Source: Candidatus Shapirobacteria bacterium
GTDB taxonomy: Bacteria; Patescibacteriota; Microgenomatia; UBA12405
Length of the DNA: 64,000 nt
Direction: 5' to 3'
NCBI GenBank assembly: GCA_041661765.1
Contig: JBAZTV010000001.1
Span: forward strand, 7,755-71,754
Shown here piece after piece: positions 10,845 through 46,395 of this stretch (positions are counted from its first letter, which is position 1; every line of letters begins with the position of its first letter). Both the position numbers and the translations under genes were made by a program. Below the pieces are notes generated by a model. The model did no database searches, was not told where the DNA came from, and was given only the letters and a program-made list of their open reading frames with translations.

Positions 10845-10875
10845 TTGTAGGGGTCAGGCATGCCTGACCCCTAAC
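10845..10875. repeat. GTAG-led perfect palindrome (TTGTAGGGGTCAGGCATGCCTGACCCCTAAC)
   Basis: 12-bp perfect stem. Adjacent to a second unit at 10889..10918. Confidence 0.75.
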
Positions 10876-10888
10876 TAAAAAATTAACC

Positions 10889-10918
10889 ATGTAGAGACGC
10901 CACGCATGGCGTCTCTAC
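10889..10918. repeat. GTAG-led perfect palindrome (ATGTAGAGACGCCACGCATGGCGTCTCTAC), family 4
   Basis: Near-identical copies at 16001..16030 (GTAGAGATGCCATGCGTGGCGTCTCTAC) and 16199..16228 (GTAGAGACGTTGCGCGCAACGTCTCTAC). Confidence 0.75.
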
Positions 10919-10981
10919 TAAAACAAAACAAATTAAATTCCCCTCCTTTAAGTCAAAGGAGGGGTTAGGGGTGGATTTTGT

Positions 10982-12412
10982 TTACTTTTTCCCAATCTTA
11001 TCCAAAAACTCCTGATTATTTTTAGTCTTAGCCATTTGGCCCAAAATCATCTCAGTAGTTTCTTCCGCCTTGCCTAAAGCATCAAACATTCTTCTAATTG
11101 AAATAATTTTAGCCATTACAGTTGGTTCTAAAAGTAAATTTTCCATTCTAGTTCCCGATCTCAAAATATCAAAAGCTGGAAAAATTCTTCTTTCAGCCAA
11201 ATTTCTTTCCAATCTCAATTCCATATTTCCAGTTCCCTTAAATTCTTCAAAAATCAAATCATCCATTTTTGAACCAGTATCCACCAAAGCTGTTCCAATA
11301 ATCGTCAACGAACCACCACCTTCAATTTTACGAGCGGCTCCAAAAAATCTTTTTGAAGGATACAAAGCAGCAGGGTCAAAACCACCCGACAATGTTCTCC
11401 CAGAAGTTGGAATTGCTAAATTGTAAGCTCGAGCCAGTCTGGTAATTGAGTCAAAAACAATAAACACATCTTTACCCATTTCTACCAATCTTTTAGCTCT
11501 TTCCATGGCAATTTCTGCCGATCGAGTTTGTTCTTCTGGTTTTTGATCAAAAGAAGACGCAATCACTTCACCTTTAATAAATCTTTGCATATCAGTCACT
11601 TCTTCTGGTCTTTCACCCACCAACACCGCCATCAAATGCACTTCTGGATAATTAATCGCAATACCTGCCGCAATTTCTTTCAATAAAGTAGTTTTACCAG
11701 CTTTAGGGGGTGACACCACCATACCTCTTTGACCAAATCCAATTGGTGAAAATAAATCAATAATTCTTGTCGAAGCTATATCAGCAGCAGTTTCCAGCTT
11801 TACCTGTTTTTGTGGATAAATTGGCACTAAATCTTTAAAATCTGGCCTATTTTGAACTTGTGATAATTCCAAATCATTAACTTTATCAATTCTCGTCATT
11901 GCCCAATATTTTTCATTTTCTTTAGGAGCCTTAGCTTGACCCAAAATCATATCCCCCACTCTTAATCCATACCGTCTAATTTGCATTGATCCAATAAAAG
12001 CATCTCTAACTGTTGGAATAAATTTAGGACGAACAAACCCCTGCCCATCTTGCATAATTTCCAAAGCCCCTAAAATAGACTCCGTTTGAACTGGAGCTGG
12101 TGGGTTATATTGAGCCTGTGGTCTTGGAGGTTGAATTGGTGCTTTTTGACCTGGTTGTACGTAAATAGTTTTTGGTTGTTCAGTTTTTACAAAAACCACT
12201 GCATTGTTATCTTTTGGTTTTTCTTCAGTTTTAACAGCCTCCCTGCTTGCCCGCCCACTGGCTGGGTCAAGGGAGGTGTTTCCGATTTCATCGGAAAGGG
12301 AGGGTTTAACCTCAGAGGGATTTTGAACAACAGGTTCTGCAACAGCAGAAACGGGTGGGTTTTTAACAACTGGATCCGCAACAACGACATCGTCGGTTTT
12401 TTTCTTTATCAT
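10982..12412 (-). CDS. rho: Transcription termination factor Rho with an extended N-terminal region that carries an in-frame nested palindromic-repeat insert
   Basis: Walker A and the Rho core (GQRGMVVSPPKAGKTTLLKEIA...VGERPEEVTDMQR...DSITRLARAYN) align residue by residue with bacterial Rho. The N-terminal segment SLSDEIGNTSLDPASGRASREAV is encoded by the composite repeat at about 12225..12330. Confidence 0.85.
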   Translation of the reverse strand: MIKKKTDDVVVADPVVKNPPVSAVAEPVVQNPSEVKPSLSDEIGNTSLDPASGRASREAVKTEEKPKDNNAVVFVKTEQPKTIYVQPGQKAPIQPPRPQAQYNPPAPVQTESILGALEIMQDGQGFVRPKFIPTVRDAFIGSMQIRRYGLRVGDMILGQAKAPKENEKYWAMTRIDKVNDLELSQVQNRPDFKDLVPIYPQKQVKLETAADIASTRIIDLFSPIGFGQRGMVVSPPKAGKTTLLKEIAAGIAINYPEVHLMAVLVGERPEEVTDMQRFIKGEVIASSFDQKPEEQTRSAEIAMERAKRLVEMGKDVFIVFDSITRLARAYNLAIPTSGRTLSGGFDPAALYPSKRFFGAARKIEGGGSLTIIGTALVDTGSKMDDLIFEEFKGTGNMELRLERNLAERRIFPAFDILRSGTRMENLLLEPTVMAKIISIRRMFDALGKAEETTEMILGQMAKTKNNQEFLDKIGKK

Positions 12413-13383
12413 TTTTTTTGGAAATTTTTAATCAATAATAATTACTTACGTAGGAACAGACCCTCGTGTCTGTTCAAATTAACAAAAAAACAAGGCAAAA
12501 ACGGGAAATTTCTTTATATTCAAACTAATTCTATCTATTAATAGCCTCTCTGTCAAGGGGTTCCCCCTCCTTTCGTCAAAGGAGGGGTTAGGGGTGGATT
12601 TAAAAATAGAGTTGAAAGTAGAAGACCTGCCCCCTCTTCTACTCTCAACTCTATTCTCAAAGCTAAATTAATTTAATTTAACCAACAGATCGGTTAATCT
12701 TAATTTGACTTTTCTACCAAATTTACCTATCTTAGATATTGAAGAAACAATGTTATTCGTGTTCCACCTGCTTTGAGAACATCGGTAGCTTTGTTTCTTT
12801 TTCGTTTCTTTAGCTAAAAATTCAAGTCATAGACGATGAATTTTTGTCTAAAGACACGATACCGGCGAAGCCGGTATATAACCGATTAAGTGAAATTCGG
12901 GGTATCAGCCCTTTTCTCTTTTCGGGTCTATTTTTAAAGTTACATCAAAATCAGCTTTCCTCTAAGTTTACCCATCTCTTTAAACTGTTTCTCCGCCCAA
13001 GTATCTTTTTTCTTGCCGGATTTTTTTGCGTTTTTAGAAGAAAACATTTTTTTAATTAATTGAAGCATTAAATTAGTATAACTCCCTTTTTGCCCTTGTC
13101 TATATCCTATATTAATTTGCCTCCCCAAAATCAACAATCCTATAATTTTTTATTTATAAAAAATAGGTTTATTTTTACCACTTTTAAACCATTTTCAGTC
13201 ATTGTGGATAACCTGAGGATAATTAAAATAAGGACTTCTCCCTTGCTTGTCCGTCCGTAGCTTTAGCGAAGGAGGATTAAGGAGAACTGCCCGCAGGGCT
13301 AAGTGGCTTTAAAACCAAAAAAAAAGGGAAAACACAATATCTAAAAAATTAGACATTATATTTCCCCTTAAGACAGACATACT

Positions 13384-13740
13384 TTAACACATTCCATCAG
13401 TCAGATAGAATTCCAAATAATCCTTTATCTCATCAACTCTCTTCCCGGTAAATACACTAATTGTATGAAAAACCTCTATTTGCTCCACCTTTAAGTATTT
13501 CCATTTTACTTCTTCTTTTCCCCACAACTTAAAACTAATTCTCGACCAAAACGTAATTTCTTTAACTTGCCACAACCCGGTTCTTAGAGAAAAACACAAA
13601 AACTGACTTACAATTTTATTACCATTTCTATTATTGATTACTTCCAATTCTAATCCGTTCATAACTGAGCTCCTAATCACCTCTGCCAATTCCATCATTT
13701 CAAAAACCTCCCTCACTTTCTTAAATAATTTCGATATCAA
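13384..13740 (-). CDS. Hypothetical protein (118 aa)
   Basis: ORF only; no recognisable motifs. Confidence 0.3.
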   Translation of the reverse strand: MISKLFKKVREVFEMMELAEVIRSSVMNGLELEVINNRNGNKIVSQFLCFSLRTGLWQVKEITFWSRISFKLWGKEEVKWKYLKVEQIEVFHTISVFTGKRVDEIKDYLEFYLTDGMC

Positions 13741-13928
13741 TAAAGTTAGTTATTAAAGTACTACTGGCCAATTATATCATCACATTTTTTTATTATGCCA
13801 ACATTATTATAAATAATAAAATATTTTAAAATGAAAAAGGCCCCGATCGAAAATTAAAAATTGATAACACATACGCGTCACCCATTTTTAATCACCTCTC
13901 AGAGCCCCTTAAACTAAAAGATAAATTA

Positions 13929-14348
13929 TTATTTTACCGAATGGCGATGTCCTCTATAAAAATCACTGCGTTTAAGTGGAATTTTTTTTATAACAAGTAT
14001 TATTCTTGTTATTTCATTTTCTTCTTGTATTTCTTCAAAAGAAACCTCCTTGAAAGAAAGAATCTCTGGATGAAATCCAATCTCATCATCTGTTTCTAAT
14101 ATTAATAAAACCAAAGATGATGAATTTTTCCCAAAATGTTCCATAAAATTAATAACATCAAAAAACTTACCCTCACAGACTATTATGCTTGTATTTTCAG
14201 AATCGACCACCATTTTATCAATAGTTTTTAAAATTGATTCTCCTTGGTAAAACACCACCTCTGGTCCATACACCTTCCAAATTATTTCCTTTAACTCTGG
14301 ATTTCTTTTCAAAACTCCATTAGAAACAACCACACTTTTTTTCTTCAT
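13929..14348 (-). CDS. Hypothetical protein (139 aa)
   Basis: ORF only; no recognisable motifs. Confidence 0.3.
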   Translation of the reverse strand: MKKKSVVVSNGVLKRNPELKEIIWKVYGPEVVFYQGESILKTIDKMVVDSENTSIIVCEGKFFDVINFMEHFGKNSSSLVLLILETDDEIGFHPEILSFKEVSFEEIQEENEITRIILVIKKIPLKRSDFYRGHRHSVK

Positions 14349-14545
14349 TACAAATTCCCCTTTTCTTATTTTTTATTCTGCATAAGCAGTAATCTAGACA
14401 CCTAGTGTCCACAGTACCACCTACAAGAATATTTAAATTTATCTCTTAATTTTCAAAGTACTTTAAATAACCACTACTATTCATGCTTTTTATAAATAGT
14501 GTAATCATTTAATTCTCAGCATTATATATTATAAGATACAAAAAG

Positions 14546-15928
14546 TCAAGTTTTTAACTCCTTCACATTCTTTATCTCCACCAATTTCCTCCCCAAACTT
14601 TTCGCTTCCTTCTTTCTTTTCTCCAAATTCCTCACCTTTCTCACTTCTCCCAACAAACTCACCTCACCCACATAAACAGGAAGATTTCTCTCCTTGTTAA
14701 GGAGAGATTTAGAGGGGTTTGAACCAAGGGGCAGATTTCGATACGAACTCCACATTGCCGCCAACACCGCCAAGTCCGCCGCCGTCTCATCAATTTTCAC
14801 TCCACCCGTCACCGACAAAAACACATCATATTTATACAAAGGTATCCCTAAACTTTTTTGAGCAATCGCCACCATTAATTGTCCCCGATTATAATCAATC
14901 CCCGAAAAAATTCTTTTCGGCATCGGCGCAAAACTTTCCACTACCAAAGCTTGAATTTCCAACATCATCGGTCTAGTTCCCTCCATCACAACAGTAACAG
15001 CACTCCCAATTTTACTTTCCTTACTCTCGATTAAATTAATTTCTTCCGATTTAATTTCTCGAAGTCCTTTTTCCTCCATTTTAAAAACCCCCACCTCATC
15101 CGTCGGACCAAACCGATTTTTACTAGTTCGAAGAATTCTTAAGTCCCCATTTTTTTCTCCCTCAAAATACAAAACCGTATCTACCATGTGTTCCAACAGT
15201 TTTGGTCCAGCAATATCCCCATCCTTCGTCACATGTCCCACAATAAAAATTGCCATCCCTTTTTTCTTTGCCATTTGTATTAATCTAAAAGTTGATTCCT
15301 TAATCTGACTTACAGATCCGGCTCCCCCAGATATCAGCGATCCGGAGCCATTGGCGTAGGACGCCATCACCTGAATCGAGTCTACCACCGCTATTTTGTA
15401 CAACTTTTGTGTTCGATCCAAAAACTCCTCCAATTCATCAATCGAATTTGTGCCTAAAACATCGAAGTTATTCGCATTTAAACCTAACCTTTTTACCCTC
15501 AACCCAATTTGCTCCGCCGATTCCTCCCCAGCCACATATAATCCACCTATCTTTCCAATTAATTGAGTCAATAAAGTACTCTTACCAATCCCTGGTTCTC
15601 CAGAAAAAAGTACCGCCGACCCTTGAACAATTCCTTTACCCAAAACTCTATCAAATTCGGAAATACCCGTAGAAAACACACATGAATTTGTAGGAACAGA
15701 CCCTCGTGTCTGTTCCTTGTTTTTATCAAAATCCCCTAAATTAACAATTTCTAATTTCTCTCCTCCAATTTTTATTTTATTTTTTATTTTTCCATTTCCT
15801 AAAAATTTATTTGAAACTTCTTTCAATGAATTCCACTCCCCACAACCACCACACTGCCCCGCCCATTTTCCAAATTCATTTCCACAATTACTACATACAA
15901 AAACCGTCTCTTTATTTTTCATTACCAA
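14546..15928 (-). CDS. radA: DNA repair protein RadA/Sms carrying two in-frame palindromic-repeat inserts
   Basis: N-terminal C4 zinc ribbon (CSNCGNEFGKWAGQCGGCGEW); RecA-like ATPase (GEPGIGKSTLLTQL) with KNRFGPT; C-terminal Lon-like domain. The insert NKEQTRGSVPTNSCV is encoded by the GTAGGAACAGACCCTCGTGTCTGTTC hairpin at 15688..15714, and NPSKSLLNKERNLP by the repeat at about 14685..14720. Confidence 0.85.
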   Translation of the reverse strand: MVMKNKETVFVCSNCGNEFGKWAGQCGGCGEWNSLKEVSNKFLGNGKIKNKIKIGGEKLEIVNLGDFDKNKEQTRGSVPTNSCVFSTGISEFDRVLGKGIVQGSAVLFSGEPGIGKSTLLTQLIGKIGGLYVAGEESAEQIGLRVKRLGLNANNFDVLGTNSIDELEEFLDRTQKLYKIAVVDSIQVMASYANGSGSLISGGAGSVSQIKESTFRLIQMAKKKGMAIFIVGHVTKDGDIAGPKLLEHMVDTVLYFEGEKNGDLRILRTSKNRFGPTDEVGVFKMEEKGLREIKSEEINLIESKESKIGSAVTVVMEGTRPMMLEIQALVVESFAPMPKRIFSGIDYNRGQLMVAIAQKSLGIPLYKYDVFLSVTGGVKIDETAADLAVLAAMWSSYRNLPLGSNPSKSLLNKERNLPVYVGEVSLLGEVRKVRNLEKRKKEAKSLGRKLVEIKNVKELKT

Positions 15929-16000
15929 TTATAACAATACTGCTCTGTACGGGCGAGGCGTGACTCGCCCTTAATAATTAATATTTATATATTTTATTAT

Positions 16001-16030
16001 TGTAGAGATGCCATGCGTGGCGTCTCTACA
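16001..16030. repeat. Family-4 GTAGAGA-palindrome copy
   Basis: Direct reading. Confidence 0.75.
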
Positions 16031-16164
16031 AATTTTAAAAATATTTCATCCTTTTTTAAGGGAGGATGTCAAAAAGACAGGAGGGTTTAAAAATAAATTT
16101 AAAAGATAAATTAATCAGAAAAAAATAAAAATTAATTTCTAGGGCCTCTCACGAAGTCACCACT

Positions 16165-16192
16165 AAAAATCCCCGATTTCTCGGGGATTTTT
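16165..16192 (-). terminator. Intrinsic terminator-like hairpin downstream of the S1 gene (AAAAATCCCCGA-TTTC-TCGGGGATTTTT, symmetric)
   Basis: Perfect 9-bp stem flanked by A/T runs immediately 3' of the CDS stop at 16241. Confidence 0.55.
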
Positions 16193-16198
16193 ATAATC

Positions 16199-16228
16199 AT
16201 GTAGAGACGTTGCGCGCAACGTCTCTAC
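16199..16228. repeat. Family-4 GTAGAGA-palindrome copy immediately 3' of the rpsA stop
   Basis: Direct reading. Confidence 0.75.
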
Positions 16229-17439: not shown

Positions 17440-17574
17440 GTAGGGGTACTCTTCCGTAGTTTTAGCGCAGGAGAGCCCAAATAAATTAATAATAAAACAC
17501 TTAAATTTATTGAATCGAATTCTTTTTAAGTCCCTCTTGTCAAAGAGGGATTTAGGGAGATTGTATTTAGTTTC

Positions 17575-17698
17575 TGAATTCTGGCCACGACCTATCTTCA
17601 AGATCCCTTGCGGGAAGACTATTGTCAGCGCTAAAGCGTTTCACTTCTCTGTTCGAAATGGGAAGAGGTGGTTCCACCTCGCTCCAATGACCAGAGTT
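17575..17698 (-). rRNA. rrf: 5S ribosomal RNA
   Basis: The reverse complement reads ...CCACCTCTTCCCATTTCGAACAGAGAAGTGAAACGCTTTAGCGCTGACAATAGT..., which matches the conserved 5S loop B/C region (CCCACCTGACCCCATGCCGAACTCAGAAGTGAAACGCCGTAGCGCCGATGGTAGT). The ends are approximate. Confidence 0.7.
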
Positions 17699-17799
17699 CA
17701 AAAACTAAACTAATCGAAATGTATTGTAATTTAATTAAAATTCTTTTTTCTTGGCCTCTAAATTGAGTTGCCCTATTCAGCTTCCAAACCCAAATTTTG

Positions 17800-20795
<2,996 letters not shown>

Positions 20796-20946
20796 CAATA
20801 TTTGGCAACTCAATTTAGTTGCCAAGAATAAACGAAATTGAAATTAAATTACTTTCGATTCAATAAATTGTTAATGTACAAATACTTAGTTAAAGGAGAT
20901 AAATTTCTTTGTCTCCTTATTTCTAACCATTTATTTAGTGGATTTA

Positions 20947-20972
20947 TCCACCGTAGCTTTAGCGTAGGTGGA
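20947..20972. repeat. Family-2 hairpin (TCCACC-GTAGCTTTAGCGTAG-GTGGA) abutting or overlapping the 3' end of tRNA-Ala
   Basis: Shares the CGTAGCTTTAGCG(A/T)AGG core with copies at 13258, 17385, 17449, 49065 and 49655, and with in-CDS copies at 4560 and 6427. Confidence 0.6.
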
Positions 20973-21042
20973 CCTGGGGAGAGTCGAACTCCCGACCTCC
21001 TCATTGCAAATGAGGCGCTATAACCAACTAAGCCACAGGCCC
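20969..21042 (-). tRNA. tRNA-Ala (anticodon TGC); CC of the CCA end is encoded
   Basis: Cloverleaf: acceptor GGGCCTG/CAGGTCC with the Ala-identity G3:U70 pair, D-arm GCTTAGTTGGTTATAGC, anticodon loop CATTTGCAATG, T-arm GGGAGTTCGACTCTCCC. Confidence 0.85.
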
Positions 21043-21080
21043 AAGTGCTTTCTTCTTTAAAGTACTGCTTTCAAGCATTA

Positions 21081-21108
21081 AAAAACCGAAAGCTAAATGC
21101 TTTCGGTC
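21081..21108 (-). terminator. Intrinsic terminator downstream of the DedA gene (minus strand: ACCGAAAGCATTTAGCTTTCGGTTTTTT)
   Basis: An 8-bp stem with a T6 run when read on the minus strand, 160 nt 3' of the CDS stop. Confidence 0.55.
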
Positions 21109-21267
21109 AATCTCCTATTTTACAATTTACTTTTCTAAGCGGGCAATCCCCCTTTATTAAAGTTTTTATTATTTTTTAGGTTGACTTTTAGCATCTCGAT
21201 AAGTGGAAGTATTCTACCTAATTTAAATATTCCCGTCAACACGCAAATCTATTTTCAATAGAACCAA

Positions 21268-21903
21268 TTATTTCTTCATTTTTACTTTAATTATTTCCAC
21301 TCCAATCGGTATCACTGAGACAAATATTATCGCCAATACCACATATTCAAAATTTGCTTTCATTACCGGAATATTTCCCAAAAAATACCCTCCAAAAATA
21401 AACAAAGTATTCCACAATAAAGATCCGATCACACTAAAAGTTAAAAATTTTAAATAAGGCATCTTCCCAATTCCTGCCACAAACGGAGCAAAAGTTCTCA
21501 CTATTGGTACAAACCTTGCCAAAATCACTGCCTTTGTCCCATATTTAGCATAAAAATCCTGTGTCTTCTCTAAATGTTTTCTTTTAAGAAATTTATTATT
21601 TGATTCAAATAGTTTTTGACCAACCAATCGTCCCACCCAATAGTTAACATTATCTCCAAGAAAAACTGCTGTTATTAACAATAAATAAAGTCCCACCACA
21701 TTAAACATTCCTTGTGCCGCCAAAGCTCCAGCTGCAAATAAAAGTGAATCACCTGGCAAAAACGGAGTGAACACCAATCCTGTCTCCATAAAAAGTATTC
21801 CCGCCAAAATTCCATAACTCAAAGTACCGTATGTTTGGGTAATAATTAAAAGATGTTCATCAATATGTAAAACAAAATCAATTATATTCATTAAAAATTC
21901 CAT
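21268..21903 (-). CDS. DedA/VTT-family membrane protein
   Basis: 211 aa with 4-5 TM helices. The motif FTPFLPGDSLLFAAGALAAQG is typical of the DedA/SNARE-associated (VTT) family. Confidence 0.7.
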   Translation of the reverse strand: MEFLMNIIDFVLHIDEHLLIITQTYGTLSYGILAGILFMETGLVFTPFLPGDSLLFAAGALAAQGMFNVVGLYLLLITAVFLGDNVNYWVGRLVGQKLFESNNKFLKRKHLEKTQDFYAKYGTKAVILARFVPIVRTFAPFVAGIGKMPYLKFLTFSVIGSLLWNTLFIFGGYFLGNIPVMKANFEYVVLAIIFVSVIPIGVEIIKVKMKK

Positions 21904-21906
21904 GTC

Positions 21907-23040
21907 CTAATTATACATTACCAACTCCCAAATACCCTTATCTTCTCCCTCATATCCCAACGCCCAAAATCCTACTCCTCCCAACTGATTTTGTTTCACC
22001 AAGTCAAGCTTTGCTTTCAAACTTCTCTCATTTTCAAAATATATCTGATGTATTTCCCCATCTTCTTCAAATACCACCCACGGCGTCATCGATAGTTCAT
22101 CAAAATTTGATGTAAGGGCAGACCCTTGTGTCTGCCCATCAAAAAACTCTTTCATCCGTTTCCAACTAGCCATTTGATACCAACCTCTAATCACTGGTGC
22201 TTCAAAATCTTTTGTATAAGTTTTCCATTCATATCCATAAAGCGGATAAGCCATCACTATTTTTTCTTTATTTATATTCAAAGCTAAAATTTTTTCCACC
22301 ACTTCCATAATATTTCTATCTCCTGGTTTCGATTCAATTGGTGCCACCGCTCCAGCATAATTCACCCCTGGTCGATGAAAATCATAAGCCATAATAATTA
22401 AATTATCGACTGAATTAATCAGACCATTAATTTGTTCCGCTGATCCCTTATTAATAGTGTTCACAAAAATATCTAAACTAATTTCTCCCAAATCACTTTC
22501 TTTTAACTTAGCCATAAAACCGACCATTTCTTCCGATAAAACTGCTGTCGGATTTCCTTGATATTCAAAATCCACATTAATCCCATCAAACTTTTCTGTT
22601 TGCCGAAGAGTTTTTAATTGATTAATCAAATTATTTTGGGCTTCAGTCGAAGCCATTAATCTATCAATTTTCTCATCAATAAACAGTTTAATCCCCAAAA
22701 TATTTTTGCCACCATTTTCCCAAATCAAGTCTTTTTGTTTTAAATAATTTTCATTATTTATTTTTTTCGATTGACCATCCCAAATCAAATTCCCTTTTTC
22801 ATCAACTTCTATTCCCAAAAAAATCAAATAATCAATTTCATCCGTATATTCAATTGTTTTTCCAACCATCCAAGTCGGCAAAAAACCAAATACTTTAATA
22901 GAAGCTCCCTTGTTAAGGGGAGATTTAGAGGGGTTTTGATTCTCAGACAACGGATTTAATATCTCCATTTTTCCATTCCAATAAAAATATCCAGCTAGTA
23001 TTACCAAAAATAATCCCAAACCTAAAAAAACCTTTTTCAT
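21907..23040 (-). CDS. Secreted glycoside-hydrolase family 18-like protein with an in-frame repeat insert
   Basis: N-terminal signal/TM. FDGINVDFEY matches the GH18 DxxDxDxE catalytic motif, and a TIM-barrel-like hydrophobic pattern is present. NPSKSPLNKGAS (repeat at about 22900..22940) and GQTQGSALTSNFD (hairpin at 22110..22136) are repeat-encoded inserts. Confidence 0.55.
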   Translation of the reverse strand: MKKVFLGLGLFLVILAGYFYWNGKMEILNPLSENQNPSKSPLNKGASIKVFGFLPTWMVGKTIEYTDEIDYLIFLGIEVDEKGNLIWDGQSKKINNENYLKQKDLIWENGGKNILGIKLFIDEKIDRLMASTEAQNNLINQLKTLRQTEKFDGINVDFEYQGNPTAVLSEEMVGFMAKLKESDLGEISLDIFVNTINKGSAEQINGLINSVDNLIIMAYDFHRPGVNYAGAVAPIESKPGDRNIMEVVEKILALNINKEKIVMAYPLYGYEWKTYTKDFEAPVIRGWYQMASWKRMKEFFDGQTQGSALTSNFDELSMTPWVVFEEDGEIHQIYFENERSLKAKLDLVKQNQLGGVGFWALGYEGEDKGIWELVMYN

Positions 23041-23309
23041 TTAATGAAAATCAAACCCAAATTCATAAATAATTCTTGCTTAATTGCCAAAACTACATTT
23101 TCATCAGCATTTTTTATTCGAATATTTTTTTCATCAAAAATCAACTCCGAATAACCTCTTTTAATCATTCTATCTACCATAATCTTAATTATTTCCACAT
23201 ATTCTTCATTTTTATTTTTTTCAAAATGTATCTCTACTATTTTATTCTTATCATCAAAAAATAATTCACCTATTTTTTCATCATTATCCCAAATATTTAT
23301 TTTTTTCAT
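23037..23309 (-). CDS. Small hypothetical protein (90 aa)
   Basis: ORF whose stop overlaps the downstream gene start (operon-style 4-nt overlap with the 23306..25012 gene). Confidence 0.35.
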   Translation of the reverse strand: MKKINIWDNDEKIGELFFDDKNKIVEIHFEKNKNEEYVEIIKIMVDRMIKRGYSELIFDEKNIRIKNADENVVLAIKQELFMNLGLIFIK

Positions 23310-25012
23310 AATTTAGATAAATATAAATTTCTAATTTGTTCCCTTGTAAATCCTTTCCTTTCCCAATGCATTTTACTCAACAATAAATTTAAATTTAAGC
23401 TTACTTTAAATTTGGATAAATTTTCTGAATCCATATACGTTTCAAATAATTCCTTCATATACCGAAACCTACTTTCCGACAATATCTGTAGTAAACTTGG
23501 ATCTTTAGTAAACATCATAAAACTCTCACAGAAATCTTCTCTTTTTTTAGTTGATTTCGATTTATTTCCTGCATATCCAACATACCAAGTTATTTCTGTT
23601 TCATCATCTCTCATCACATTTTCCCACTTCTTTAAGTCATCAACTCCTAAATCATTATGTACTCCATGACCAATTTCATGTGTTAAAGTATCCAAAAAAG
23701 CTCCTCTAATAAAAAATTCTTTTTTTTCATTATTATCACCATTATCCATTTCAAATGGTTCATAGATAGTAATATTTCCATAAATTAATTTTCCTTTATC
23801 ATTTAATATTGGTTTAAACTCACCAACTATTACTTTTTTAGTTTTTCCATTTGCATTATCTTCATTGTTTCCAAAATCAATATCATCTTCTGATCGCTCT
23901 CTCGATACCTCTATTTTTCCTATTTTTAAAAAAGCAGTGGGGAGAGTACCTTCCAAAAAGGCTTTCACTATACCCTCGGTAACTACTAATTTTTTACCAT
24001 CACTTGCCTCTAAACCTATTATTTTTATCTTAATTAAAGTTTTTTCCTCTCTTTTAGATTCAATAAAACATTGTTTTTCATCATCATTTTGAGGTAATAA
24101 TCCACTCTCTATTAATTTCTTTTCATCTTCTATAAACCTCTTCTCTATTGCTTTTAAAAATCTTGGATCATAGTGTGAATCATCAACCTCAGAATCAAAA
24201 TAGTAATGATGATCTAATAATTTTAAAAACAACATTGTTGGATTTTTAAAATTATTCGTCAGCCTATAAATCATATGTAAGGTATTAGTTTCAAGTAATT
24301 TTTCATTAACTCTATTCACCTTCTCTAATAAAGATTTTTTACTTATACTTTCACTTTTTTCATTTTTTCCATCAGACAAATTGTTTTTTTCTTGAAAATC
24401 TAAAAATCCATGATTATCACATCTACTTCTTATCTTTTTCAAAGACTCTTCAATTGAATATAGAGAATAAAGATCATTTTGTTCTAATTTCTCATCATCT
24501 CCCGATACTATCACTTCTCTCAATGAGAGAATATCATCAATTGATACAATATGACCAAGGAATTCATCATTTTTATTGTCTAAAAAATAATTCACTACTT
24601 TATTAAAATTAATTTGGCCCGAAAGTTCGTTTGCAAAGATTTTTATGTCCTCAACTACATAAGGTTTACACTCTTCTTTTAAAGAAAAAAACTCATTTTC
24701 TTTTTTATAAATTTCAAAACCTAAATTTACAATTTTAGTTATATTAGATTGATCTTTATATTCTTCTAAAAGTTTCTCTATCATTTCACTTTTTTCAGAT
24801 AAAGACATTTCATTATTATCTATAACAACAAAAAACGAATCATTTATTTGATCCCGATCACTTTCTGAAAGATTATCATAAAGTTCATTTCCTTCATTTC
24901 TCATTACATCTAAATGACTTTCTGTATTTTTAATATCACTTTCAACTACACTTCTAGACCTAGCCATTATCTCAACTTTAGAATAAAGTTCTCCAACACC
25001 AGTTGTTTCCAT
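23306..25012 (-). CDS. Large acidic protein with a C-terminal HExxH zincin-like metallopeptidase motif
   Basis: 568 aa, very E/D/K-rich. TLTHEIGHGVHNDLG and a downstream E (EDFCESFMMFT) are consistent with a zincin fold. No TM or signal peptide. Confidence 0.45.
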   Translation of the reverse strand: METTGVGELYSKVEIMARSRSVVESDIKNTESHLDVMRNEGNELYDNLSESDRDQINDSFFVVIDNNEMSLSEKSEMIEKLLEEYKDQSNITKIVNLGFEIYKKENEFFSLKEECKPYVVEDIKIFANELSGQINFNKVVNYFLDNKNDEFLGHIVSIDDILSLREVIVSGDDEKLEQNDLYSLYSIEESLKKIRSRCDNHGFLDFQEKNNLSDGKNEKSESISKKSLLEKVNRVNEKLLETNTLHMIYRLTNNFKNPTMLFLKLLDHHYYFDSEVDDSHYDPRFLKAIEKRFIEDEKKLIESGLLPQNDDEKQCFIESKREEKTLIKIKIIGLEASDGKKLVVTEGIVKAFLEGTLPTAFLKIGKIEVSRERSEDDIDFGNNEDNANGKTKKVIVGEFKPILNDKGKLIYGNITIYEPFEMDNGDNNEKKEFFIRGAFLDTLTHEIGHGVHNDLGVDDLKKWENVMRDDETEITWYVGYAGNKSKSTKKREDFCESFMMFTKDPSLLQILSESRFRYMKELFETYMDSENLSKFKVSLNLNLLLSKMHWERKGFTREQIRNLYLSKL

Positions 25013-25058
25013 TAAACTAGATTAAAGAAATTCATTTCAATAGTCAAATAAATCCAAT

Positions 25059-25466
25059 TTAATTCCTTATTTTTGTATATCTACTTTTTCCAAAAGCCAA
25101 AATTGGATAAAAAATCATCGGCAAAAATATCAATCCTAAAACAAATCCCATTGATTTTTTAAATGACTTAACCAAATTAAGCAGAACCACCAATCCAATA
25201 ATTATGTTAACTAAGGGAATAAACATTAAAAATATATACCAAATTGGCATCCCCACAATTTCCAATAAAACCACCATGTTATAAACTGGAACCAATGCCG
25301 CCCAGCCAGGTTTCCCGGCTTTCACAAAAATCTTCCAGGCCGATGCCAACATCAATATTAAAAATAAAAAACAAATAAAATTACCAAACATTCCCATTCC
25401 CCCAATTCCTGCCGCATAACCATAACCAGCATGATAACCAGAAGTATTATAAATGTAATTATTCAT
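25059..25466 (-). CDS. Small integral membrane protein (135 aa, 3-4 TM)
   Basis: Gly/Tyr-rich N-terminus followed by hydrophobic helices. Confidence 0.4.
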   Translation of the reverse strand: MNNYIYNTSGYHAGYGYAAGIGGMGMFGNFICFLFLILMLASAWKIFVKAGKPGWAALVPVYNMVVLLEIVGMPIWYIFLMFIPLVNIIIGLVVLLNLVKSFKKSMGFVLGLIFLPMIFYPILAFGKSRYTKIRN

Positions 25467-25545
25467 ACATTAATATTAATACACCATTTCCAAAAGTCAA
25501 ACGCTTTATCTACGATCTATCATCAACAATCCAAGATCTAATTTG

Positions 25546-25619
25546 TGGGTGATGGGGGACTCGAACCTCCGACCCCTGTCTTATCAGGACAGTGCTCTAA
25601 CCAACTGAGCTAATCACCC
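25546..25619 (-). tRNA. tRNA-Ile (anticodon GAT); CCA not encoded
   Basis: Acceptor GGGTGAT/ATCACCC, D-arm GCTCAGTTGGTTAGAGC, anticodon stem-loop CTGTC-CTGATAA-GACAG, T-loop TTCGAGT. One A:C mismatch in the T-stem. Confidence 0.75.
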
Positions 25620-25755: not shown

Positions 25756-26700
25756 TTAACAATGTTTCAAAAACATCTCCACTATTAATTTTGCCACATT
25801 AATTCCAGTCGACTTTTCAAATCCCTGAAATTGACATTGTCGATTCACTTCCAACACAAAACTATTTCCTTCATCATCTTTCATGATATCTACTCCACAA
25901 TAATCCAATCCACAAACATTAGCCACTTTTTCGGCAATTTCTCTATCTTTCTGAGACAAATCCCAACCTTCAACCTTTCCCCCTAAACTAAAATTACTTC
26001 TAAATTCATCTCCCACCGCCGATCTTTTCATGGCTCCAATTGCTTTTCCATCCAACACAATAATTCTCAAATCCCATCTGGTTGGTAAACATTTTTGCCA
26101 CAAAAACATCCCTACATTTTTTTCATTAATTCTTCTGACAAATTTTCTTAGTTCTTTAAAGTTTTCAAATTTTCTTACCGATTTACCTTGAAACCCTCTT
26201 TCATGTTTAGCAATTATCGGCCAACCAAAACTTTCCCCAATTTTGCTCTCTAAAACTTGTTCCTTCGTATAGAATATTTTTGTCGGAATTACTGACACCT
26301 CATTTTCTAAAAACACCCCATGTTGAGCAATTTTCCCCATTCTTGTCCAATGTAAATATCCTTCTTTATTAGCACAAAATATTGATTTTTCTGTAAGAGC
26401 AGACCCTTGTGTCTGCCCACTCAATAATCTTATTGCTAAATTTCTCGCCTCAGTATATTTTCCCGATCTAGTACCCGCCACCCTAAACCACATTCCCAAA
26501 GTATTTTTCCCATTAATTTCTTCTCCTTTAATAAAAACTTTCGCCTTTCCATTCTCTACATTAAAAGTCAAATCCTTATACAAAGCTCTATTCACTTCCA
26601 CTCCCAATTTCTTTGCCTCAGATTCCAATCTATCCACCTCAAATTGGCTTTGTCTTAACGACATTGTAAATGTAACGATTTTTTTATTCATAATTTTCAC
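25756..26700 (-). CDS. RimK-like ATP-grasp ligase (paralogue 1) with an in-frame GQTQGSA hairpin insert
   Basis: ATP-grasp motifs: the C-terminal LDYCGVDIMKDDEGNSFVLEVNRQCQFQGFEKSTGINVAKLIV is RimK/LysX-like. The insert is encoded by the hairpin at 26392..26418. Confidence 0.7.
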   Translation of the reverse strand: MKIMNKKIVTFTMSLRQSQFEVDRLESEAKKLGVEVNRALYKDLTFNVENGKAKVFIKGEEINGKNTLGMWFRVAGTRSGKYTEARNLAIRLLSGQTQGSALTEKSIFCANKEGYLHWTRMGKIAQHGVFLENEVSVIPTKIFYTKEQVLESKIGESFGWPIIAKHERGFQGKSVRKFENFKELRKFVRRINEKNVGMFLWQKCLPTRWDLRIIVLDGKAIGAMKRSAVGDEFRSNFSLGGKVEGWDLSQKDREIAEKVANVCGLDYCGVDIMKDDEGNSFVLEVNRQCQFQGFEKSTGINVAKLIVEMFLKHC

Positions 26701-26735
26701 TATTAATTAATAAGTCCCTCTTGTCAAAGAGGGAT

Positions 26736-27818
26736 TTAGGGAGATTTCAATGATACTAAAAATTTAACCATTTCCATTGGCACATCAATTCCAGTTGCCT
26801 CCATAAATCCCTTAAATTGTGGTCCTTTATTCACTTCCCAAATTATCGGCTGGCTCAAGTCATTATTTCTAAAAGCCACATCTACTCCTGCCACTGCCAA
26901 TCCACAAACCTTAGCTGCCTTAACTGCCAATTGTTTAATTTCTTCCGACAATTCAGCCAATTCAACCTTTCCTCCAGCTGAATAATTATTTTTAAATTCA
27001 TCTTTATTTTGACTGCTTCTTTTCATCACTCCCAACACTTTTTCTCCCAACACCAACACTCGAAAATCCCCATCATTAGGGATAAACTCTTGCAGCATAT
27101 ATCTTCTTCCCTCATCAATTTCACTTTTTCTCAAATCTCTTACCAATTTTTCTAATTGTTCCAAATTATCCGTCTTAAACACTCTCGTCCCCCTGTCTCC
27201 ACCCGAACCCTTAATAATTACTGGAAATTTCCAAATATAATCAGTCGAGCCAGAAATATTTTTTTGGAGCGCAACATCCGAGGTGCAATGCCGAAGGGCG
27301 TGAGCACCAACAAAAATGTTTTGGCGATCAGACTGATTATTCATAAATTCATACAAATACCACAAACTTCCATAAACTGTTTTCGGTACCTCTATTCCCG
27401 CTTCTTTCAAAGCCAACATTTGCCAAGCCTTACACGCCATACTTGGTTTTCCACTTTCCACTAATGGATCAACGATGATTGGTTTTTTTAAGTCTCCCTT
27501 TAAGTCAAAGGGAGATTTAGAGGGATTTTTTATCTGATTAATAATCAAATCAACTTCTTCCCAATGTTTTCCCGTCGTTCTAAAAAACAACACATCGTAA
27601 TCGTCTACTTTTTTATAATCATCAAATTGGTTTATTCTACTTTCCCCACTTAAATTTGGTCTAATTAAAATTTCTTTTTTTTCCGTATCAAAACAAACTT
27701 TGTTGTATGACACCAAATCCAAACTAACCCCCAATTTTTTAGCCGCCTTTTTAACCAACACCAAATGTTGACTTATCTTCCCTCCAAAAAACACTGCTAT
27801 TTTTGTTTGTTTGTTCAT
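26736..27818 (-). CDS. RimK-like ATP-grasp ligase (paralogue 2) with two in-frame repeat inserts
   Basis: KGSGGDRGTRVFK and LAVAGVDVAFRNND...IWEVNKGPQFKGFMEATGIDV are RimK-like. The inserts are KNPSKSPFDLKGDLKK (about 27485..27535) and HALRHCTSDVALQ (GC-rich element at 27267..27309). Confidence 0.7.
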   Translation of the reverse strand: MNKQTKIAVFFGGKISQHLVLVKKAAKKLGVSLDLVSYNKVCFDTEKKEILIRPNLSGESRINQFDDYKKVDDYDVLFFRTTGKHWEEVDLIINQIKNPSKSPFDLKGDLKKPIIVDPLVESGKPSMACKAWQMLALKEAGIEVPKTVYGSLWYLYEFMNNQSDRQNIFVGAHALRHCTSDVALQKNISGSTDYIWKFPVIIKGSGGDRGTRVFKTDNLEQLEKLVRDLRKSEIDEGRRYMLQEFIPNDGDFRVLVLGEKVLGVMKRSSQNKDEFKNNYSAGGKVELAELSEEIKQLAVKAAKVCGLAVAGVDVAFRNNDLSQPIIWEVNKGPQFKGFMEATGIDVPMEMVKFLVSLKSP

Positions 27819-29260: not shown

Positions 29261-29311
29261 AATTTATTTATTTTGTTAAGTCTCCCCTGTCAAGGGGAGA
29301 TTTAGAGGGGT

Positions 29312-30178: not shown

Positions 30179-30335
30179 ATGTTTATTTTACTTTATATCT
30201 AGTTCTAAATCTGAGACCTGAAATTTGACATCTAAGATCTCTAATGTTGCGTATTATAACACCGATTTTTCAAAAAAAACCACCAAAGACTTCTCCCTTT
30301 GTTAAGGGGAGATGTCCGCAGGACAGAGAGGTTTT

Positions 30336-30349
30336 TTTATAGTATAATT
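30336..30349 (+). promoter_or_regulatory. Candidate -10 element TTTATAGTATAATT, 10 nt upstream of the ATG of pilin paralogue 1 (an identical 14-mer lies at 32226..32239 before paralogue 6); possible leaderless or short-leader promoter
   Basis: Identical 14-mer with a TATAAT core in both places, each sitting directly after a family-1 repeat tail (GGTTTTT). Confidence 0.35.
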
Positions 30350-30358
30350 CAAACAAAT

Positions 30359-30691
30359 ATGAACTCCGTTTTAGCCTTTAATCTTAGTGACATCCAACTT
30401 GGACAAACTTCTAACACTCTTGGCGGCAGTTACTCCACTACCAGTTCTCTTATTTCTATTATTCTCAAAACTTCCATTACTATTGCCAGTATTATTTTTC
30501 TTGGCCTTTTGATTTTTGGTGGAATTACCTTTATAATGAACGCAGGCAGTGGTGATTCCAAAAAAGCCGATCAAGGCAAAACAGCCATCACCAACGCTGT
30601 AATTGGATTCGCTATTGTGCTTTTAGCCTATACCATAATCCAAATTATCGAAGTTATTACTGGACTAAACATTTTAAATCCAAATTTATAA
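30359..30691 (+). CDS. VirB2/TrbC-like two-helix pilin candidate, paralogue 1 (the ORF-track start at 30299 reads through a repeat; ATG at 30359 preferred)
   Basis: Hydrophobic helix, loop AGSGDSKKADQGK, hydrophobic helix. Same architecture and loop motif as the five downstream paralogues. Confidence 0.55.
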   Translation: MNSVLAFNLSDIQLGQTSNTLGGSYSTTSSLISIILKTSITIASIIFLGLLIFGGITFIMNAGSGDSKKADQGKTAITNAVIGFAIVLLAYTIIQIIEVITGLNILNPNL

Positions 30692-30693
30692 TT

Positions 30694-30999
30694 ATGGCAT
30701 CAATTTTTGGAAACATTTCCAACCCCACTTCTTTTGCTAACGGTCCTCAAGGTTTCTTTGATTTTTTAAGCGCTATTTTTAAAGTTGCCGGCACAGTTGC
30801 TGGTATTTTCTTTATTATTAAAATAATTATGGCTGGTTTTAGTTACCTCAACGCTGGTGGAGATGAAAAGAAAATCTCCCAAGCTTGGGCTACCATTTGG
30901 CAAAGTATAGTTGGTTTCGTTATTGTTGCCTCTGCTTTTGTCATCGCCAGTGTCATCGGCAACTTAACTGGAATTAATATTCTTAACCCTACTCTATGA
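30694..30999 (+). CDS. VirB2/TrbC-like pilin candidate, paralogue 2
   Basis: TM helix, loop AGGDEKK, TM helix. 2-nt spacing from the previous gene. Confidence 0.55.
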   Translation: MASIFGNISNPTSFANGPQGFFDFLSAIFKVAGTVAGIFFIIKIIMAGFSYLNAGGDEKKISQAWATIWQSIVGFVIVASAFVIASVIGNLTGINILNPTL

Positions 31000-31340
31000 A
31001 CCATTTAACCAATAATCTTTTAGCCTACACTCTCACTGGTCCAGGTATTAAACCTGGATCCAATTCTGTTTCCACCTTAGAAAAAATTATTAGTTCTGTC
31101 ATTGGCATTTTAACCCTTGTTGGTGTTATTTACTTCACCATTCAAATAATTTTAGCCGGATATAAATTAATTGCTTCCCAAGGAGATCCAAAAGAATTCG
31201 AATCTGGTAAAAAAAGATTAACCACAAATATTATCGGTTTAGCTGTTATTGTTCTCGCCTACGGGCTCGGTGCCCTAATCGCCAGCTTACTCGGAATGAG
31301 CAGTATTTTTGATTTATCAACCGTTTTTAAACCAATTTAA
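30996..31340 (+). CDS. VirB2/TrbC-like pilin candidate, paralogue 3
   Basis: TM helix, loop SQGDPKE, TM helix. 4-nt overlap with the previous gene. Confidence 0.55.
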   Translation: MNHLTNNLLAYTLTGPGIKPGSNSVSTLEKIISSVIGILTLVGVIYFTIQIILAGYKLIASQGDPKEFESGKKRLTTNIIGLAVIVLAYGLGALIASLLGMSSIFDLSTVFKPI

Positions 31341-31341
31341 T

Positions 31342-31668
31342 ATGGCCATCACCAATCCTGTTTTAAAAAATAGTTCTAATATTAGTAGTAACCCCACTGG
31401 CTACTTTAACAGTGCCATTCAAACTATGATTTCTCTTTTTTTTATTTTTGGCCTAATCTACTTTATTTTTCATTTAGTTCTTGCCGGCTACAAAATGATT
31501 TCCTCTCAAGGGGATCCTAAAAAATATGAAGAGGCTCAACATAGCCTTATCTACTCTTTAATTGGTATTGCTATCGTCTTTTCCATTTTTGCCCTACTCA
31601 AAATTGTTGGCACTATTTTCGGTATCACCGGATTAGAAAGTTTAACCATTACCTGGCCATCCCTTTAA
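31342..31668 (+). CDS. VirB2/TrbC-like pilin candidate, paralogue 4 (start moved to the ATG right after the upstream stop)
   Basis: TM helix, loop SQGDPKK, TM helix. Confidence 0.55.
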   Translation: MAITNPVLKNSSNISSNPTGYFNSAIQTMISLFFIFGLIYFIFHLVLAGYKMISSQGDPKKYEEAQHSLIYSLIGIAIVFSIFALLKIVGTIFGITGLESLTITWPSL

Positions 31669-31717
31669 TATTTAAAATTTACTGGTAAAATTAATTAATA
31701 GTTATTAAATCAAAAAA

Positions 31718-32098
31718 ATGATCAAAGAAATAAAAAACAAAATTCAATTTGCAGCTGTTGCTGCTCCAATCTACGCCGCTCAAAGTTTAGAACTTACTGG
31801 TAAAGAGGGAAGCTTTTCTAACCTCGAAAATTTAACCATTAACGGTATGGTTTCTGGTGCTATTAGTTTAGTTTTAATTGTCGTGTCGTTAGTTTTCTTC
31901 TTTATTCTTGTCATCGGTGGTCTCAAGTGGATCACTTCTGGTGGAGATGAAAAAAAGGTTGCTGCCGCTCGTGCTGAAATTACCAATGCTTTAATCGGTT
32001 TAGTTATTGTCTTTGCCGCTTGGGCCATTATGAAACTTATTGGCTCCATCTTTGGCATCAACATCCTTGGAACTCTAACCATTCCAACTTTCCAATAA
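31718..32098 (+). CDS. VirB2/TrbC-like pilin candidate, paralogue 5
   Basis: TM helix, loop SGGDEKK, TM helix. Followed by a terminator hairpin. Confidence 0.55.
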   Translation: MIKEIKNKIQFAAVAAPIYAAQSLELTGKEGSFSNLENLTINGMVSGAISLVLIVVSLVFFFILVIGGLKWITSGGDEKKVAAARAEITNALIGLVIVFAAWAIMKLIGSIFGINILGTLTIPTFQ

Positions 32099-32114
32099 AA
32101 TCAATTTGATTTTT

Positions 32115-32144
32115 CACCCCTCCAATAATTTGGAGGGGTTTTTG
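32115..32144 (+). terminator. Intrinsic terminator after pilin paralogue 5 (CACCCCTCCAATAATTTGGAGGGGTTTTTG)
   Basis: An 8-bp GC-rich stem followed by a T5 run. Confidence 0.6.
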
Positions 32145-32244
32145 TTTAGACTTCTCCTTTTTTTTAATAAAAATAAAAGTGCCCTGTCAAGGGAAAGGTG
32201 GTACGAAGTACCAAAGGGTTTTAACTTTATAGTATAATTAATCC

Positions 32245-32598
32245 ATGAATTTAATCTCAAATATTTTCTCTCCTCCCCCAGTTTATGCCCAATCAGTTTG
32301 GAATAGTACTTGTGTTAAAGATACCGACGTCGCCACTATCCAAGGTTTTAATTGCCTTTTTGCTAATATTGCCCAAGTTATCGTTTATTTTGCTGGTCTT
32401 GCCTTTTTTATCATGTTCATTCGCGGTGGCTTCAGTTATCTAACTTCCAGTGGCGATCCAAAAAAAACAGCTAAAGCCACTTCCACCCTCACCCTGGCCA
32501 TTATTGGCCTAGTTGGAGTTATTATTTCCTACCTAATCATCAAATTCATCGGTGATTTTACAGGCATCAATATTACTGAGTTTAATATTCCCAGTTAA
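32245..32598 (+). CDS. VirB2/TrbC-like pilin candidate, paralogue 6
   Basis: TM helix, loop SSGDPKK, TM helix. It has its own upstream TTTATAGTATAATT element, identical to the one before paralogue 1. Confidence 0.55.
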   Translation: MNLISNIFSPPPVYAQSVWNSTCVKDTDVATIQGFNCLFANIAQVIVYFAGLAFFIMFIRGGFSYLTSSGDPKKTAKATSTLTLAIIGLVGVIISYLIIKFIGDFTGINITEFNIPS

Positions 32599-40077: not shown

Positions 40078-40143
40078 ATTAAAACCCCTCCTTTAAGTCA
40101 AAGGAGGGGTAGGGGTGGATTTTGAAAAATAAAAAATAATTTT

Positions 40144-45959: not shown

Positions 45960-46024
45960 AGTTTATTTTAACTTAAATATTATTTACCGATCTATCTTAT
46001 TCCCCTCCTTTTTTAAGGAAGTTT

Positions 46025-46051
46025 TGTAGGGGCAGACCATTGTGTCTGCCC
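46025..46051. repeat. Family-3 hairpin: TGTAGGGGCAGACC-ATTGT-GTCTGCCC (second copy at 46209..46235 with CGTTGT)
   Basis: 8-bp perfect stem. Further copies lie inside CDSs at 22110..22136, 26392..26418 and 50706..50733. The sub-variant GTAGGAACAGACCCTCGTGTCTGTTC occurs at 12449..12475 and 15688..15714. Confidence 0.75.
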
Positions 46052-46208
46052 AACCATTAATCCCTTGCGGTTATATTTCGGCAATTATGCGGTTATTACC
46101 TTCAAAATATGTTCTAACTTTTATTATCCATACCTCCGAAACGTGAAAAAACGTCATAACCCAATTCCATAGTTTTGTCATAATTTTTAAATTTAAAAGG
46201 GAAATTTT

Positions 46209-46235
46209 ATGTAGGGGCAGACCGTTGTGTCTGCC
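46209..46235. repeat. Family-3 hairpin copy (TGTAGGGGCAGACCGTTGTGTCTGCCC)
   Basis: Direct reading. Confidence 0.75.
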
Positions 46236-46340
46236 CAAAATAAAAGGAAAAATAGTCCCAACCAATTTCAAATGGCCAAAATTAAAATCCAAAATCTGTA
46301 CTAATTTCAAGCAGGGGAATATATCAAAAATAAAAATAAA

Positions 46341-46395
46341 ACCTCCCTGTCAAGGGAGGTGGCGATCCCGCAACTGCGGGAGAGACGGAGGGTTT
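46341..46395. repeat. Family-1 repeat: near-identical copy of 25687..25742 (the hairpin B loop is CAACTG instead of CAGCAG)
   Basis: Direct reading. Confidence 0.8.

Follow-up and report, generated by a model that had tools for sequence, protein, structure and literature searches.

GTAG-tagged repetitive extragenic palindromic (REP) elements are defined by a hairpin that carries GT[AG]G at its 5′ foot; their tags can be degenerate, a single genome can contain several families of them, and some copies lie in frame within genes, DNA-repair genes often among them (Di Nocera et al. 2013, PMC3733652). Two of their kinds, one called 'canonical long' and the other 'double-foot', are tied to subclass 2.4 of the TnpA_REP proteins, or REP-associated tyrosine transposases (RAYTs) (Quentin, Siguier, Chandler & Fichant 2018, PMC6006769). 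TnpA_REP binds the single-stranded REP but not the complementary strand, requires GTAG, and cleaves to either side of it at CT or CA (Ton-Hoang et al. 2012, Corneloup et al. 2021; PMC3333891, PMC8266576); binding and cleavage of the single-stranded unit have been shown only for the systems of E. coli, S. maltophilia and Marinomonas (PMC3333891, PMC8266576). Here we describe short hairpin units in a 64-kb stretch of DNA, the window, from Candidatus Shapirobacteria of the Candidate Phyla Radiation (CPR, or Patescibacteria). Judged by their anatomy, their excess over chance, a head conserved with the same stem and their association with RAYT genes elsewhere, the units are probably GTAG-tagged REP elements, short non-autonomous hairpins of the two subclass 2.4 types. 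The system is of a known kind, and no new kind of system is revealed.

A mismatch-tolerant search of the window collects 12 GC-rich palindromic units of 24–28 nt with stems of 7–14 bp, spread over 10.8–50.7 kb at a density of about one per 5 kb, a figure that applies to this window alone. All units listed in a first-pass annotation of the stretch are among them, displaced by 1–2 nt or less. The head is GTAG in eight units, GTAA in two and GTAC in two, with a T directly before it in 11 of the 12. Stems are perfect in 10; units 26393 and 16002 (units are named by their first position) have one mismatch each.

Family 3 (consensus GTAGGGGCAGACC-NTTGT-GTCTGCCC) consists of GTAAGGGCAGACCCTTGTGTCTGCCC at 22112–22137 and GTAAGAGCAGACCCTTGTGTCTGCCC at 26393–26418, both with head GTAA, GTAGGGGCAGACCATTGTGTCTGCCC at 46026–46051, GTAGGGGCAGACCGTTGTGTCTGCCC at 46211–46236, and GTACGGGCAGACCATTGTGTCTGCCC at 50708–50733 with head GTAC, all on the + strand. 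Family 3b (consensus GTAGGAACAGACCCTCGTGTCTGTTC) has the consensus sequence itself at 12450–12475 and GTAGGAACAGACCCTCGTGTCTGTTCCT at 15690–15717, both +. A single unit, GTACGGGCGAGGCGTGACTCGCCC at 15947–15970 (+), has a 7-bp stem. The stem foot is GGG/CCC in family 3 and in unit 15947, with the variant GGAAC in family 3b, and all three have a common layout, GTAG-GGGC (or GGAAC) leading to a 6-nt loop with a TG/GA end; contrary to what had been proposed, the stems are not all unrelated. Family 4 (consensus GTAGAGACG...CGTCTCTAC) has a double foot, GTAG...CTAC, and no strand is assigned to its members: GTAGAGACGCCACGCATGGCGTCTCTAC at 10891–10918 (12-bp stem), GTAGAGATGCCATGCGTGGCGTCTCTAC at 16002–16029 (one T.G mismatch) and GTAGAGACGTTGCGCGCAACGTCTCTAC at 16201–16228 (a 14-bp perfect palindrome). 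Units 10891 and 16201 have the flanks AAYCAT/TAAAAC in common. The remaining single unit, GTAGGGGTCAGGCATGCCTGACCCCTA at 10847–10873 (+), has a 13-bp perfect palindrome, TAGGGG...CCCCTA, and comes near the double foot. On sequence, families 3, 3b and unit 15947 match the 'canonical long' type, and family 4 and unit 10847 the 'double-foot' type.

Tagged hairpins with a perfect GC-rich stem of at least 7 bp number 10 on the + strand, while 200 dinucleotide-preserving shuffles yield 0.2 ± 0.5 (maximum 2, both strands summed), which excludes chance. Folded as single-stranded DNA, every unit is stable (−5 to −14 kcal/mol). The units are not assembly artefacts, because an independent ENA assembly (L244/L125) has identical ones. 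Literature matches to the unit strings (GTAGAGACG and others) were primer noise only.

Eight of the 12 units are extragenic, every one in a spacer between minus-strand (co-directional) genes. Two (10847 and 10891) lie between rho and the M23 peptidase gene; one (12450) lies upstream of rho, 38 nt from its start codon (12412); three lie between rpsA and radA, namely 15947, 19 nt upstream of the radA open reading frame (ORF), 16002, and 16201, which begins 13 nt past the rpsA stop codon; and two (46026 and 46211, 185 nt apart and in the same orientation) lie between a polysaccharide-synthesis gene and a DUF4012 gene. The first-pass annotation had put the first two after the M23 peptidase gene; they are between rho (stop 10982) and the M23 start and, since both genes are on the minus strand, upstream of M23. 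It had also put the last two in a 250-bp gap, which actually measures about 550 bp (45960–46507). Its description of units as pairs flanking genes is overstated, since the neighbours have the same orientation within spacers and do not form the inverted pairs known as REPINs (REP doublets forming hairpins) or bacterial interspersed mosaic elements (BIMEs).

The other four units are intragenic, and all are translated in frame on the minus strand. In the GH18 gene (21907–23040, minus), unit 22112 encodes GQTQGSALT (residues 302–310) within a stretch that is variable among orthologues; in an ATP-grasp gene (25756–26700, minus), unit 26393 encodes the same peptide at residues 95–103; and unit 50708 forms the final nine codons of rnpA (50704–51069, minus), where GQTQWSART-stop (residues 113–121) lies past the Ribonuclease_P domain. 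Translation thus bears out the GQTQGSA and GQTQWSA peptides reported earlier for these three genes. The fourth copy, unit 15690 in radA (14546–15928, minus), had been listed without its intragenic position being noticed. It encodes EQTRGSVPT (residues 72–80) in the linker that joins the Zn ribbon to the ATPase domain, and this insert falls partly opposite a gap when aligned to the solved S. pneumoniae RadA structure (5LKM). A fixed reading frame was considered and rejected: the four window units share one, which is not a rule because relatives use all three (GQTQGSALT, KGDHKSRPY, RADTSVCPY).

The window agrees with the GTAG-tagged REP superfamily in having palindromes of 20–40 bp that end on one side in a GTAG tag, whether paired or unpaired, a tag that degenerates at positions 2–4 (here GTAA, GTAC), stems of 6–13 bp, several families per genome, and a location mostly between co-directional genes with some in-frame copies, notably in DNA-repair genes (here radA). 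It differs in its CPR host, a group outside the phyla surveyed (PMC3733652), in having one third of its units intragenic and its asymmetric units all on one strand, and in showing no head-to-head or tail-to-tail dimers in the window. Inverted dimers are not obligatory, as families of mostly singletons have also been described (PMC3733652). With the subclass 2.4 REPtrons (PMC6006769) the window shares both REP types (three G-C pair foot; GT[AG]G...C[TC]AC) and also the family-3 core, which is the sequence encoded inside their RAYT genes in other phyla (VGADLRVCP). It differs from them in that neither the window nor about 65 kb of relatives yielded the defining tnpA_REP, and in that subclass 2.4 has been reported chiefly from Cyanobacteria, Bacteroidetes and larger genomes. 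The E. coli REP/BIME system (TnpA_REP/RayT) and the Pseudomonas REPINs resemble the units here in a GTAG head with a hairpin behind it, and would share with them a substrate of single-stranded DNA and a high number of copies. In E. coli the REPs carry bulged stems and form inverted pairs (BIMEs), and Pseudomonas REPINs are inverted doublets, whereas the stems here are perfect, the two mismatched ones apart, and the units are singletons or same-orientation neighbours. The REP/BIME and RAYT systems nevertheless were the right comparison to propose. Rickettsia palindromic elements (RPEs) are similar in being palindromic repeats found in frame in protein genes of a small-genome bacterium. RPE-1 elements are much larger than the 26–30-nt units here, which add 9–10 residues. 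RPE-4 and RPE-6 have been classed as tagged REPs (Di Nocera et al., PMC3733652), with tags of the CGTC type and not GTAG.

The family-3 core is found far beyond this lineage. A scan of one genome per species with the headless core GGGCAGACCNNTGTGTCTGCCC gave at least 120 loci, and a metagenome scan with the core and its NTTG loop gave at least 118, for at least 238 loci in the two collections with GC contents of 0.22–0.68. Phyla among the genome matches listed include Cyanobacteria, Bacteroidota, Firmicutes, Chloroflexota, Desulfobacterota, Planctomycetota, Campylobacterota and many candidate phyla. Again among the matches listed, GTAG precedes the core in 133 of 156 copies from the genome scan, usually with a pyrimidine before it, and in 78 of 121 copies from the metagenome scan, where GTAA and GTAC come next. 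The two together give 211 of 277 copies in which a core lacking the head recovers GTAG, and the earlier suggestion that this leader is a recognition signal is borne out by this and by its match to the known TnpA_REP guide motif. The accompanying suggestion, that a shared leader stands in place of common descent of the stems, does not fit: the family-3 stem is identical across phyla and the family-4 feet recur on 116 viral contigs, and the stems in their own right are widely shared families. Other tagged hairpins in the scanned loci have the same head on the stems GGGCGAAC, GGGCGCAC, GGGCGGAC and GGGCGAGG, from which the GGGC foot is taken to be nearly universal; the last of these is the form in which the stem type of unit 15947 is found in other phyla. 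We rejected the NTTG loop as typical of the Shapirobacteria lineage, as the metagenome matches come from many unrelated lineages. The viral matches are to the double-foot pattern GTAGAGACG-N10-CGTCTCTAC, on 116 IMG/VR contigs (L248–L363), where the inner sequences vary and are palindromic for the most part. Those stretches contain no RAYT gene, and family 3b was not found in IMG/VR viral contigs. Phage or prophage DNA may carry double-foot units between hosts.

RAYT genes were sought over the 238 loci with E. coli RayT as the query and then with a profile built from 120 homologues. RAYT-like ORFs are present in six of them (L044, L059, L088, L132, L176 and L229), and in the three inspected closely (L044, L059 and L088) a unit lies inside the RAYT-like gene or a few hundred bases away. 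Three RAYT-like ORFs that were scanned match Pfam Y1_Tnp (PF01797); two that were tested against NCBIfam match REP_Tyr_transpos (NF047646) below its cut-off. E. coli RayT itself matches the subclass 2.4-like proteins weakly. RAYT homologues number more than 8000, and in nearly all of the best 120 of them the HUH motif is followed at once by VGADLRVCP or VGADLCVCP, a feature published as the hallmark of subclass 2.4. VGADLRVCP is encoded by GTAGGGGCAGACCTGCGTGTCTGCCC, and an inverted unit encoding GEHxGSP comes next.

Two of the loci hold tandem arrays of GTAGGGGCAGAC units: six at a 69-nt period in the cyanobacterium Shackletoniella (L071, 2144–2510), and three at a 44-nt period in a Dehalococcoidia sequence (L030, 152–261). 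A CRISPR reading was rejected; the arrays are tandem REP clusters, and that of L071 lies inside a reading frame matching the REP-encoded part of the RAYT profile.

Comparison with syntenic regions of other Shapirobacteria genomes (L122, L124, L245, L246 and L247) reveals gain or loss of units between related genomes. In the ATP-grasp gene at 25756–26700, unit 26393 is part of a clean insertion of 30 nt (10 codons), which the L122 and L124 orthologues (89% and 81% protein identity) lack, an alignment that points to a unit gained within the lineage. In the neighbouring ATP-grasp gene (26736–27818), L122 and L124 have GGGCGAC-cacaaga-GTCGCCC-GTAC where the window has a repeat of another palindromic class (27493–27515, NPSKSPFDLKGD, in frame); the site is exactly the same, so that different hairpin repeats take each other's place there. 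Elsewhere in this gene, at a second site, L122 GGCGGAC...GTCCGCC corresponds to L124 GGGCAGAC...GTCTGCCC, which differ by a compensatory G:C to A:T change. Among 60 RadA homologues the linker contains REP-type peptides (GRTQGSTRT, VGQTRGSALT, GQTRGSART, GSTRGSTRT) at differing positions, which implies that insertion happened repeatedly and independently. L247 has further stems (GGGCGATTC, GGGCGAATC, GAGACGCGCC) and also, at 9963–9938, a unit identical to window unit 46211.

GTAG is on the + strand in all eight asymmetric window units. That strand is C-rich throughout the window, including the + strand genes dnaA and dnaN (51489–54262, that is, 51.5–54.3 kb), and GC skew stays between −0.1 and −0.5 across 1–64000, without a change of sign at rnpA–dnaA, where the origin is expected. 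Relative to radA, unit orientation is the same in relatives. In L247, two units in an oppositely transcribed gene keep the chromosomal strand, with GTAG on the sense strand (VGANHDSP twice). From these two units the bias seems to follow the strand of the chromosome and not transcription; an orientation tied to transcription was rejected on the same two sense-strand units, which are weak evidence. Preferential loss from the lagging-strand template is a speculative cause of the bias.

Under our preferred reading, that the units are subclass 2.4 GTAG-tagged REPs, we infer that these copies were moved by a RAYT that this genome encodes now or did in the recent past. Following the steps described in the literature, a unit in single-stranded DNA would fold into a hairpin, a HUH/Y1 transposase (RAYT) would bind the hairpin plus its 5′ GTAG guide tetranucleotide and cut a nearby CT or CA dinucleotide via a 5′-phosphotyrosine link, and the strand would be rejoined elsewhere, copying or moving the unit. 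In Shapirobacteria, units would have spread in this manner into intergenic spacers, and where a multiple of three bases was inserted into a tolerant linker or C-terminus the unit could persist as 9–10 added residues.

Several observations weigh against this reading. Searches of the 64-kb window (40 ORFs by Pfam, plus six-frame ORFs by profile) and of the approximately 65 kb from four related Shapirobacteria genomes found no RAYT or other Y1 transposase. Patescibacteria are not named among the matches listed, neither in the at least 120 genome loci nor in the best 120 RAYT homologues. CPR/Patescibacteria genomes are small. RAYT genes have been reported to be rarer in small genomes (PMC6006769). 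Some models take the inverted pair (REPIN/BIME) as the mobile unit; the window has none, with 10847/10891 and 46026/46211 each in the same orientation, and one inverted pair was seen in relatives (L247, 19812+/19895−). Finally, if the usual GC-skew rule holds, the GTAG strand is the leading-strand template, an assignment made from GC skew alone, while IS200/IS605 elements favour the lagging-strand template.

Some of these points could be turned into a bolder proposal, in which a CPR host whose genome is very small maintains several active GTAG-REP families (roughly one unit in every 5 kb, each asymmetric copy on one replication strand) and encodes no cognate RAYT; spread or maintenance would fall to another enzyme or to a replication-linked, hairpin-targeted process, and core proteins (RadA, the RNase P protein, ATP-grasp) would owe to the units a main share of their in-frame linker insertions. 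We regard this as unlikely. Also unlikely is spread in this lineage without a cognate RAYT, by template switching or gene conversion between hairpins, by another HUH enzyme or nuclease, or by repeated import on phage or foreign DNA. It would account for the lack of a RAYT in about 130 kb of Shapirobacteria DNA, for the one site with different palindromic repeats across relatives, which suggests hairpin-targeted replacement, and for the family-4-type units on 116 viral contigs. However, the DNA read is a small part of each genome, so that a RAYT gene present in one copy would mostly escape notice, the units retain the exact head and foot that RAYTs recognise, and the clean 30-nt insertion resembles transposition more than conversion.

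The hairpins might instead be RNA or DNA structures selected by the host (mRNA 3′-end stabilisers, processing or attenuation signals, or protein-binding sites), maintained by selection and not spread chiefly by transposition. Such roles would suit the 8 of 12 units between co-directional genes, several of them right after a stop codon as with 16201 behind rpsA, as well as the compensatory change by which orthologous units keep their pairing; roles at the RNA level have been proposed for many REPs (PMC3733652). We nonetheless regard this explanation as unlikely, since four units fall within coding sequence, close relatives differ in the units they have, and the two L247 units in the opposite gene keep their chromosomal strand, so that their RNA would carry the complement. 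The two imperfect units give one wobble per strand, so neither strand is favoured as RNA. Intrinsic terminators in particular were rejected: on the sense (minus) strand, where the units have no T run, a terminator scan picks out none of the GTAG units, its sole match at a unit (15692–15717, within radA) is antisense, and distinct terminator-like hairpins adjoin units, for example that at 16164–16193, with a T run, beside unit 16201. Nor does Rfam give any match at the gathering threshold, and none up to an E-value of 1 corresponds to a REP unit; two weak rimP-leader matches (E = 0.37 and 0.7) merely overlap unit 16201–16228. Very improbable, finally, are ends or remnants of a conventional IS200/IS605 element or of a miniature inverted-repeat transposable element, or chance palindromes in an AT-rich genome: IS200/IS605 ends also have subterminal hairpins with a 5′ guide tetranucleotide (PMC3333891), but the units are isolated 24–28-nt hairpins with a shared flank of at most about 6 nt, in family 4 only, the window has no tnpA/tnpB and no paired left and right ends, and chance falls to the 10 observed against 0.2 in shuffles.

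Read as GTAG-tagged REPs, the units would extend a known class of selfish or domesticated DNA hairpins to the CPR and its very reduced genomes, with interest resting on that host, the many intragenic copies, the strict strand bias and a transposase that has not been located. They offer a concrete case of REP units adding 9–10 residues to essential proteins, and one of different palindromic repeat families occupying one site in related genomes. The one-strand orientation, kept inside an oppositely transcribed gene in a relative, gives a testable handle on whether replication is linked to the insertion or retention of REPs. In annotation, the units account for the recurrent peptides GQTQGSALT, VGADxCVCP and VGANHDSP in predicted proteins.

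A second palindromic class, the first in the earlier annotation, consists of a C-rich arm, a loop gtca or aagtc, a G-rich arm and then TTTAGRGG or TTAGGGGT; CCCCTCCTTTaagtcAAAGGAGGGGttaggggt is an example. A palindrome scan finds it at 10940–10964, 12564–12587, 17531–17550, 26715–26734, 29281–29300, 40084–40110 and other positions. Its 3′ arm resembles a Shine-Dalgarno sequence on the sense (minus) strand, and some copies are 12–21 nt upstream of start codons (26700, 29260). Besides the ATP-grasp copy described above, one is in frame in radA (14687–14707, residues 408–414, PSKSLLNKERNLP), part of it opposite a gap in S. pneumoniae RadA (5LKM).

Upstream of rho is a conserved stem-loop of about 60 nt, AATAGAGTTGAGAGTAGAAGA-GGGGGCAGG-TCTTCTACTTTCAACTCTATT followed by a T run (12598–12660, minus), with counterparts in L122 (~12690), L124 (~12150), L245 (~4900), L246 (4846–4916) and L247 (13567–13637). 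Over these six genomes, the window included, the loop is invariant and the stems covary; the stem-loop has no Rfam match and may act as a leader, as an attenuator or as a small RNA. It starts with GTAG but is not a REP. A hairpin from a loose scan, 12617–12643 (GTAGAAGA...TCTTCTAC), was rejected as a REP because it is positionally conserved upstream of rho with covarying pairs in the five relatives.

The window is AT-rich (about 35% GC), with the majority of genes on the minus strand. Its RadA is 100% identical to an NCBI protein labelled Shapirobacteria, and some 4.5 kb of adjoining sequence on the left falls wholly within a giant gene. Its protein genes include rho, the M23 peptidase gene, radA, rpsA, rnpA, yidC, jag, dnaA and dnaN, and its RNA genes are 23S, 5S, tRNA-Ala and tRNA-Ile; no 16S rRNA gene lies within the 64 kb. 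The rRNA genes are split (17579–25619): 5S, 23S and tRNA-Ala are together, and tRNA-Ile lies another 4.5 kb upstream, with five protein genes (VTT, GH18 and others) in between. At 30299–32598 (+) is a run of six small genes, every one of which matches T4SS_pilin (PF18895).

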